DNA of 51,277 nt, taken from IMG/VR virus record IMGVR_UViG_2851955134_000001. One strand, given 5' to 3'. This document shows positions 26,318 through 27,512 of the stretch, in pieces (the stretch's first letter is position 1; each line of letters opens with the position of its first letter). A program made the translations under genes and the position numbers. The notes beneath the pieces are model-generated. The model saw only the letters and a program-made list of their open reading frames with translations. It did no database searches and was not told the origin of the DNA. Source of the DNA: a virus. Taxonomy: Duplodnaviria; Heunggongvirae; Uroviricota; Caudoviricetes.

Positions 26318-27512
26318 GGAAGGTGCGAATAAGCGGGGAAATTCTTCTCGGCTGACTCAGTCATTTCATTTCTTCATGTTTGAGCCGATTTTTTCTCCCG
26401 TAAATGCCTTGAATCAGCCTATTTAGACCGTTTCTTCGCCATTTAAGGCGTTATCCCCAGTTTTTAGTGAGATCTCTCCCACTGACGTATCATTTGGTCC
26501 ACCCGAAACAGGTTGGCCAGGGTGAATAACATCGCCAGTTGGTTATCGTTTTTCAGCAGCCCCTTGTATCTGGCTTTCACGAAGCCGAACTGCCGCTTGA
26601 TGATGCGAAACGGGTGCTCTACCTTGGCACGGATGCTGGCTTTCATGTATTCGATGTTGATGGCCGTTTTGTTCTTGCGCGGATGCTGCTTCAAGGTTTT
26701 TACCTTGCCGGGACGCTCGGCGATCAGCCAGTCCACATCCACCTCGGCCAGCTCCTCGCGCTGTGGCGCTCCTTGGTAGCCGGCATCGGCTGAGACAAAT
26801 TGCTCCTCTCCATGAAGCAGATTACCCAGCTGATTGAGGTCATGCTCGTTGGCCGCGGTGGTGACTAGGCTGTGGGTCAGGCCACTCTTGGCATCGACAC
26901 CAATGTGGGCCTTCATGCCAAAGTGCCACTGATTGCCTTTCTTGGTCTGATGCATCTCCGGATCGCGTTGCTGCTCTTTGTTCTTGGTAGAGCTGGGTGC
27001 CTCAATGATGGTGGCATCCACCAAAGTGCCTTGGGTCATCATGACGCCTGCTTCGGCCAGCCAGCGATTGATGGTCTTGAACAATTGACGGGCCAGTTGA
27101 TGCTGCTCGAGCAGGTGGCGGAAATTCATGATGGTGGTGCGATCCGGCAGGGCGCTATCCAGGGATAATCGGGCAAACAGGCGCATGGAGGCGATTTCGT
27201 ACAGGGCATCTTCCATGGCACCGTCGCTCAGGTTGTACCAATGCTGCATGCAGTGAATACGCAGCATGGTCTCCAGCGGATAGGGCCGTCGGCCATTGCC
27301 CGCCTTGGGATAAAACGGCTCGATGACAGCGGTCATATTCTGCCATGGCAGAATCTGCTCCATGCGGGAGAGGAAAATCTCTTTTCGGGTCTGACGGCGC
27401 TTAGTGCTGAATTCACTATCGGCGAAGGTGAGTTGATGGCTCATGATGTCCCTCTGGGATGCGCTCCGGATGAATATGATGATCTCATATCAGGAACTTG
27501 TTCGCACCTTCC
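26318..27512 (-). mobile_element. IS5 insertion sequence with TTAA target duplication
   Basis: Terminal repeats ggaaggtgcgaataag (26318) and cttgttcgcaccttcc (27497-27512); ttaa on both flanks; InsH-type transposase inside. Confidence 0.9.
26464..27444 (-). CDS. insH: IS5 transposase
   Basis: 326 aa starting [12 protein letters not shown]..., recognised as IS5 InsH. Confidence 0.95.

Follow-up and report, generated by a model that had tools for sequence, protein, structure and literature searches.

An ISKpn26 insertion at a TTAA site in non-coding DNA of the late region of a lambda-like prophage

What did an insertion sequence (IS) that lies among the late genes of a lambda-like prophage do to the DNA it entered? 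The question is raised by positions 26,318 to 27,512 of a 51,277-nucleotide (nt) stretch of tailed-phage DNA (Caudoviricetes; IMG/VR record IMGVR_UViG_2851955134_000001), which in its full length is called the window here. A sequence-only reading had described an intact IS5 at these positions, 70 base pairs (bp) past a two-gene module that is referred to below as the cargo module and encodes proteins of 287 and 149 amino acids (aa), and had proposed that the insertion may have removed or displaced a terminator or a third gene. The comparisons reported here indicate that the element is the closely related ISKpn26 and that an active-looking copy of it very probably reached a TTAA site in non-coding DNA by a simple and recent transposition. 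Among IS insertions it is an ordinary case, of a familiar kind and caused by a known element; the DNA that received it, a conserved non-coding unit now split in two, is the less familiar part. The parts of the element and its target duplication are as follows.

26318..27512, - strand (the strand of the transposase gene): complete ISKpn26 (IS5 family, IS5 group), 1195 bp
26318..26333, no strand: terminal inverted repeat at the IS 3' (IRR) end, GGAAGGTGCGAATAAG
27497..27512, no strand: terminal inverted repeat at the transposase-proximal (IRL) end, whose reverse complement is GGAAGGTGCGAACAAG
26314..26317, no strand: left copy of the TTAA target-site duplication; relatives have a single TTAA here
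27513..27516, no strand: right copy of the TTAA target-site duplication
26464..27444, - strand: intact transposase gene, 326 aa, the sole long open reading frame (ORF) of the element

The element is structurally complete. Its 16-bp terminal repeats match each other at 15 of 16 bases and begin with GGAAGGTGCGAA; they are the same as the ends of K-12 IS5A, as expected for the IS5 group. The transposase scores 366.8 bits against the NCBIfam IS5 family transposase model NF033581 (cut-off 140) and contains the Pfam domains DDE_Tnp_1 (PF01609, 4.5e-35) and, at its N terminus, DUF772 (PF05598, 3.3e-21). Every coordinate that had been given is exact, and the position of the element downstream of the module on the - strand is confirmed; the distance between the IS end and the stop codon TAG (27582-27584) of the neighbouring membrane-protein gene, which is the 149-aa gene, measures 69 nt (27513-27581), in agreement with the 70 bp stated earlier. 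Only one pair of IS ends occurs in the window.

The assignment to the IS5 type and group stands, while the name itself had to be corrected. Aligned with K-12 IS5A (NC_000913, 273955-275149), the element is 94.6% identical over 1196 aligned positions; of the 65 differences, a group of clustered substitutions and two indels of 1 nt fall between the start codon of the transposase and the IS end next to it; the transposase shares 320 of 326 residues (98.2%) with that of IS5A (insH1), so that six amino acids differ. The customary ISfinder cut-off for giving two copies the same element name is 95% nucleotide identity, a value that the comparison with K-12 IS5 does not reach. A copy in the E. coli strain ABW_A19, on the other hand, matches at 1194 of 1195 nt, and its transposase is named "IS5-like element ISKpn26 family transposase" in RefSeq. 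The exact 326-aa sequence is present on at least 1000 contigs, under the name ISKpn26 family transposase in both NCBI and UniRef. Judged by sequence identity, the element is ISKpn26, an IS5-group element distinct from IS5 sensu stricto, with the name taken over from copies labelled in RefSeq, NCBI and UniRef.

How the element arrived can be read from relatives that lack it. The empty site was reconstructed by joining both flanks through one TTAA and was searched in 5,426 complete E. coli genomes. In TUM1886 the joined sequence is found in a single piece at 99.5%; in LH50-c it is found at 97.4% overall, split into two joined pieces because a second copy of a repeat is present, and direct comparison gives 99.0% across the site. 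Both strains agree with the reconstruction over the 80 bases that surround the site, where they have one TTAA, and a draft genome, GCA_002545035.1, is identical to it throughout (1022 of 1022 nt). Synteny with IS-free relatives holds over about 10 kb, with terminase and ylcI to the left and the two cargo genes to the right. Among ten loci that encode an identical 149-aa protein, the site is intact in eight and IS5-type ends occur in none, and the exact IS junction was found neither in the 5,426 complete genomes nor in any GTDB species representative. Since the flanks are joined by a single TTAA in the IS-free relatives, one of which matches in full, a simple and recent transposition is the reading to be preferred with considerable confidence. 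A staggered cut at the TTAA followed by repair produced the 4-bp duplication; IS5 prefers targets of the form YTAR, TTAA included (PMC5009759), and has used TTAA sites at bgl and flhDC (PMC5493358), so that the duplication seen here fits the rule. A chance resemblance is ruled out by the one-nucleotide difference from another E. coli copy, the many contigs that bear the same transposase and the single TTAA of the IS-free relatives.

These alignments also speak to the proposed loss of a terminator or a third gene, which they contradict. The flanks are contiguous through one TTAA in TUM1886, LH50-c and GCA_002545035.1, no ORF runs across the reconstructed site, and a consensus scan of it gave no terminator-like site. 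Furthermore, a long imperfect hairpin (27534-27585) that starts at the stop codon of the 149-aa gene is still attached to that gene. Nothing was deleted, no ORF was broken and no rearrangement took place.

What the insertion did interrupt is a conserved non-coding unit of about 300 nt, which begins at about 27580, at the stop codon of the 149-aa gene, reaches ylcI at about 26082, and whose first 64 nt or so are now parted from the other 235 nt or so. Two copies of the unit lie in the window.

27517..27580, - strand: 5' part of the distal copy, severed by the IS; the stop-codon-proximal hairpin and half of a GGGATA/TATCCC hairpin
26082..26317, - strand: 3' part of the distal copy; the core multi-stem domain and two more hairpins
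29068..29255, - strand: proximal copy, core only, about 85% identical to the distal one, upstream of the module and beside bor

The target TTAA lies in the loop of the GGGATA/TATCCC hairpin, 64 nt into the unit, and it is invariant in 25 of 25 units with the exact GGGATAAC-CTGATATCCC context. Copies of the unit bracket the two-gene cargo module, and in LH50-c it is two full copies that do so. The unit is not tied to these genes: in Stx2 phage 1717 and in phage PhiR70_1 it follows quite different ones, starting at their stop codons, and a core of about 108 nt is found in lambda (46868-46974) and in K-12 DLP12 (579009-579116), where nothing is annotated. Across 97 loci the core is flanked by at least 15 types of sequence upstream and at least 19 downstream, with the unit 80-96% identical between these mosaic flanks. 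The severed 5' part is present in only about 30 of 102 distinct units. A protein-coding reading, suggested by the annotation of the TUM1886 copy as an HNH endonuclease fragment, was ruled out by indels of 1 and 2 nt between copies.

Several observations point to a structured RNA. In an alignment of 88 distinct cores, taken from IMG/VR phage contigs, two named phages and the window, the RNAalifold consensus reaches -30.2 kcal/mol on the late strand as against -13.1 on the other, and in a structure of 35 pairs 98.2% of the cells can pair, seven pairs having changes on both sides (47 cells). When the partners are slid by one to three columns, pairing falls to 36-62%. None of 500 shuffles equalled the observed pairing, the number of double-change cells or the covariation score, a result to be read with the relatedness of the aligned sequences in mind, by which shuffles overstate significance and several covarying pairs may stand for few events. 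Roughly a tenth of the paired cells are G-U, and the structure belongs to the late-strand RNA because such pairs would be mismatches on the other strand. Compared with shuffled sequence, the IS-free unit is more stably folded (z = -2.68 for the late strand, -1.66 for the reverse strand). A search with Rfam 15 gave no match to the core at E up to 1 within 25400-29800 of the window, nor at E up to 5 within the IS-free locus of GCA_002545035.1 (L131); the only overlap with the unit is a chance-level reverse-strand match of mir-458 on the 5' hairpin, 18 bits where the gathering score is 59, and other weak matches lie elsewhere. Published prophage anti-sRNAs are located at the PR' site, which lies between Q and the lysis genes, and not at the unit, and a general literature search returned no relevant description of an RNA structure near lambda bor. 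We therefore put forward, tentatively and with the balance leaning somewhat against it, that ISKpn26 cut in two a structured RNA of about 300 nt, so far undescribed, which lambdoid phages carry where their lysis or cargo genes give way to the packaging genes. Such a unit may serve in the processing or stability of the late transcript, or as homology by which cargo genes move between phages.

The same stretch has been entered by other elements. In the assembly GCA_053734255.1 (locus L136, about 2980-4310) an IS10 occupies the stop-codon hairpin and is flanked by a 9-bp duplication, and in strain RMDEC364 (locus L129, about 3305-4221) an ISSfl7 is inserted in the final codons of the 149-aa gene, with a TAG repeat on either side; the annotated features of VL46 are the same. 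Both are independent insertions in other strains, within about 110 bp of the ISKpn26 site. This fits a stretch just after the 149-aa gene that is tolerant of insertions or a local IS hot spot, and not a selected regulatory change.

The consequences for transcription depend on the surrounding gene order. The - strand is the late operon of the prophage, and the insertion site falls in non-coding DNA that separates the cargo genes from the ylcI, cos and terminase region. In late-strand order, the lysozyme gene (30220-30753) is followed by Rz, Rz1, bor (on the opposite strand), the 287-aa gene, the 149-aa gene, the IS, ylcI (on the opposite strand), the terminase genes Nu1 and A, and portal. The genes closest to the element are these.

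28155..29018, - strand: 287-aa gene, first of the cargo module, PHROG 2571 (function unknown)
27582..28031, - strand: 149-aa gene, second of the cargo module, two hydrophobic segments, PHROG 3054 (function unknown)
25894..26088, + strand: ylcI/ynfO-family gene (DUF3950), in convergent orientation to the late operon and directly adjacent to the conserved unit's 3' end
24961..25470, - strand: terminase small subunit gene (Nu1-type), the first late-strand gene past the IS, about 850 bp from its end; Pfam Phage_Nu1 in identical relatives

The transposase gene and the late operon are read in the same direction, so late transcription would enter at the transposase-proximal end, cross the transposase gene and leave toward cos and the terminase genes. 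In lambda, late transcription is subject to antitermination by Q. For IS5, Saier's group found that a promoter at the start of ins5A drives genes beyond the whole element with about 15% less activity than the promoter alone (PMC11894529). From the shared orientation, this read-through and Q antitermination, strong polarity on Nu1, A and the structural genes appears unlikely. No change in the expression of the cargo genes is expected, as they precede the IS and retain their 3' hairpin, and on the strength of orientation and the IS5 experiments the insertion is probably almost neutral for the lysogen. An induced phage would be longer by 1.2 kb and would take the IS with it.

Some points weigh against such a benign view. 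Both neutrality and the lack of polarity derive from orientation and from experiments with IS5, not ISKpn26, and the 65 positions at which the two differ are clustered in the leader upstream of the transposase start. The split unit is conserved and covarying, so the insertion may not be neutral for the phage. In addition, the prophage also holds an IS66-family unit, which bears on the fit into a lambda-type head, and the left end of the prophage lies outside the window.

The break in the continuity of the conserved unit is the one plausible cost of the insertion, and it can be extended into a reading in which the IS, lying inside the unit, disables a cis-acting RNA or DNA element of the late operon by parting the 5' hairpins from the core, thereby lowers the fitness of the phage and helps to lock the prophage in place. 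The preservation of the unit between mosaic flanks, its strand-specific covariation and its better-than-shuffled folding on the late strand would all suit this explanation. Nevertheless, we consider it unlikely, for the 5' part is dispensable in many phages, given how few of the distinct units have it and that lambda and DLP12 keep the core alone, the core of the distal copy and the whole of the proximal copy are untouched, and the unit has no known function.

A regulatory effect, in which the IS would switch the cargo module, ylcI or the terminase genes on or off in the lysogen as IS5 does for its neighbours at bgl, glpFK, flhDC and fucAO, appears more doubtful still. IS5 activates genes in several ways, among them a fusion promoter at its transposase end (PMC11894529; PMC5493358). 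Here, however, the IS follows the cargo genes in the direction in which they are transcribed, and these retain their 3' hairpin; about 850 bp lie between the IS end and the start of the next late-strand gene downstream; and a scan of both junctions and the outward-facing ends found no promoter-like site. The known IS5 fusion promoter depends on an activator site in the flanking DNA, of which none was seen, with no test aimed at one. The presence of two other IS types so close by in other strains likewise fits a tolerant site better than a selected change. Finally, the element could mark a larger IS-mediated rearrangement, such as an adjacent deletion, an inversion or the end of a composite transposon. 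Elements of the IS5 type do cause such events (PMC5009759) and a second IS, of the IS66 family, is present in the same prophage, yet this explanation has hardly any probability left when the 4-bp duplication is identical at both ends, the flanks are colinear with IS-free relatives (100% over 1022 nt, with synteny over about 10 kb) and the IS ends occur as a single copy in the 51-kb window. A simple transposition into non-coding DNA is thus the reading that we retain.

Other observations concern the cargo module and the rest of the prophage. Searches of both cargo proteins against Pfam, NCBIfam, the PADLOC models of anti-phage defence systems (E up to 0.1) and PDB sequences gave no informative match. 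The module (27582-29018) is also found on E. coli plasmid records of about 46 kb that encode phage portal and terminase proteins. A terminator-like hairpin rich in GC, CGTGCGACCGTGGTCGCACG, with a T-rich tail after it (29044-29063, - strand), lies between the proximal unit copy and the beginning of the 287-aa gene, and because of it the expression of the module may depend on antiterminated late transcription or on an unrecognised promoter. In the assembly GCA_044697945.1 (locus L134, 3382-4098) a gene with a TonB_C domain and two small ORFs replace ylcI downstream of the module, which is another cargo swap beside the conserved unit. The IS66-family unit, adjoining a tail-fibre gene, consists of three ORFs of 225, 115 and 523 aa (HTH_Tnp_1, TnpB_IS66 and DDE_Tnp_IS66) at 2459-5074 on the + strand; terminal repeats and a target duplication were searched for around it and none were found. 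An integrase gene (47157-48182) adjoins tRNA-Ser(cga), followed by mtfA and tRNA-Asn, and no repeat of the tRNA-Ser region that would mark the attachment site at the other prophage end occurs within the window. The early and immunity region contains gathering-level Rfam matches to sok antitoxin RNA, DicF, isrK and C4 antisense RNA (36743-36917, 42958-43009, 43255-43331 and 43356-43443).

In itself the insertion adds one more recent move of a very common element, and the phage could ferry ISKpn26 between hosts. The strain that bears the IS and its IS-free twin form a natural pair for probing the role of the conserved unit. The split unit is the lead worth following, as it is found in lambda itself, without an annotated function in the records examined.

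Set against known systems, the element agrees with ISKpn26 in all that is material: the length of 1195 bp, the 16-bp ends, the 326-aa transposase and the 4-bp duplication are shared. ISKpn26 is best known for the inactivation of mgrB in Klebsiella (PMC8796155), whereas the copy described here lies in a prophage of E. coli type. With K-12 IS5 (IS5A, insH1) it has the length, terminal repeats, YTAR target rule and gene layout in common and a nearly identical transposase, and it departs from that element in the nucleotide differences and leader-region indels given above.

Insertions of IS elements into lambdoid prophages are well known, such as those of IS5 in nmpC of DLP12 and of IS629 in Stx phages. 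As at this locus, the elements lie in accessory or non-coding DNA, Stx2 phage 1717 having an IS629 beside its terminase genes. In DLP12, nmpC is annotated as a two-piece (joined) pseudogene, whereas no gene is interrupted here, and what sets the present case apart from the known insertions is its target, a conserved non-coding unit between the lysis and the packaging genes. The arrangement recalls the morons and conserved junction sequences of mosaic lambdoid phages, to the extent that these are described in a secondary account (Juhala et al. 2000 as cited in PMC4104026): the module is extra late-operon cargo bracketed by a sequence common to many otherwise different phages. The bracketing unit at this locus differs from that model in that it covaries on one strand, which would not be expected of a mere recombination linker.
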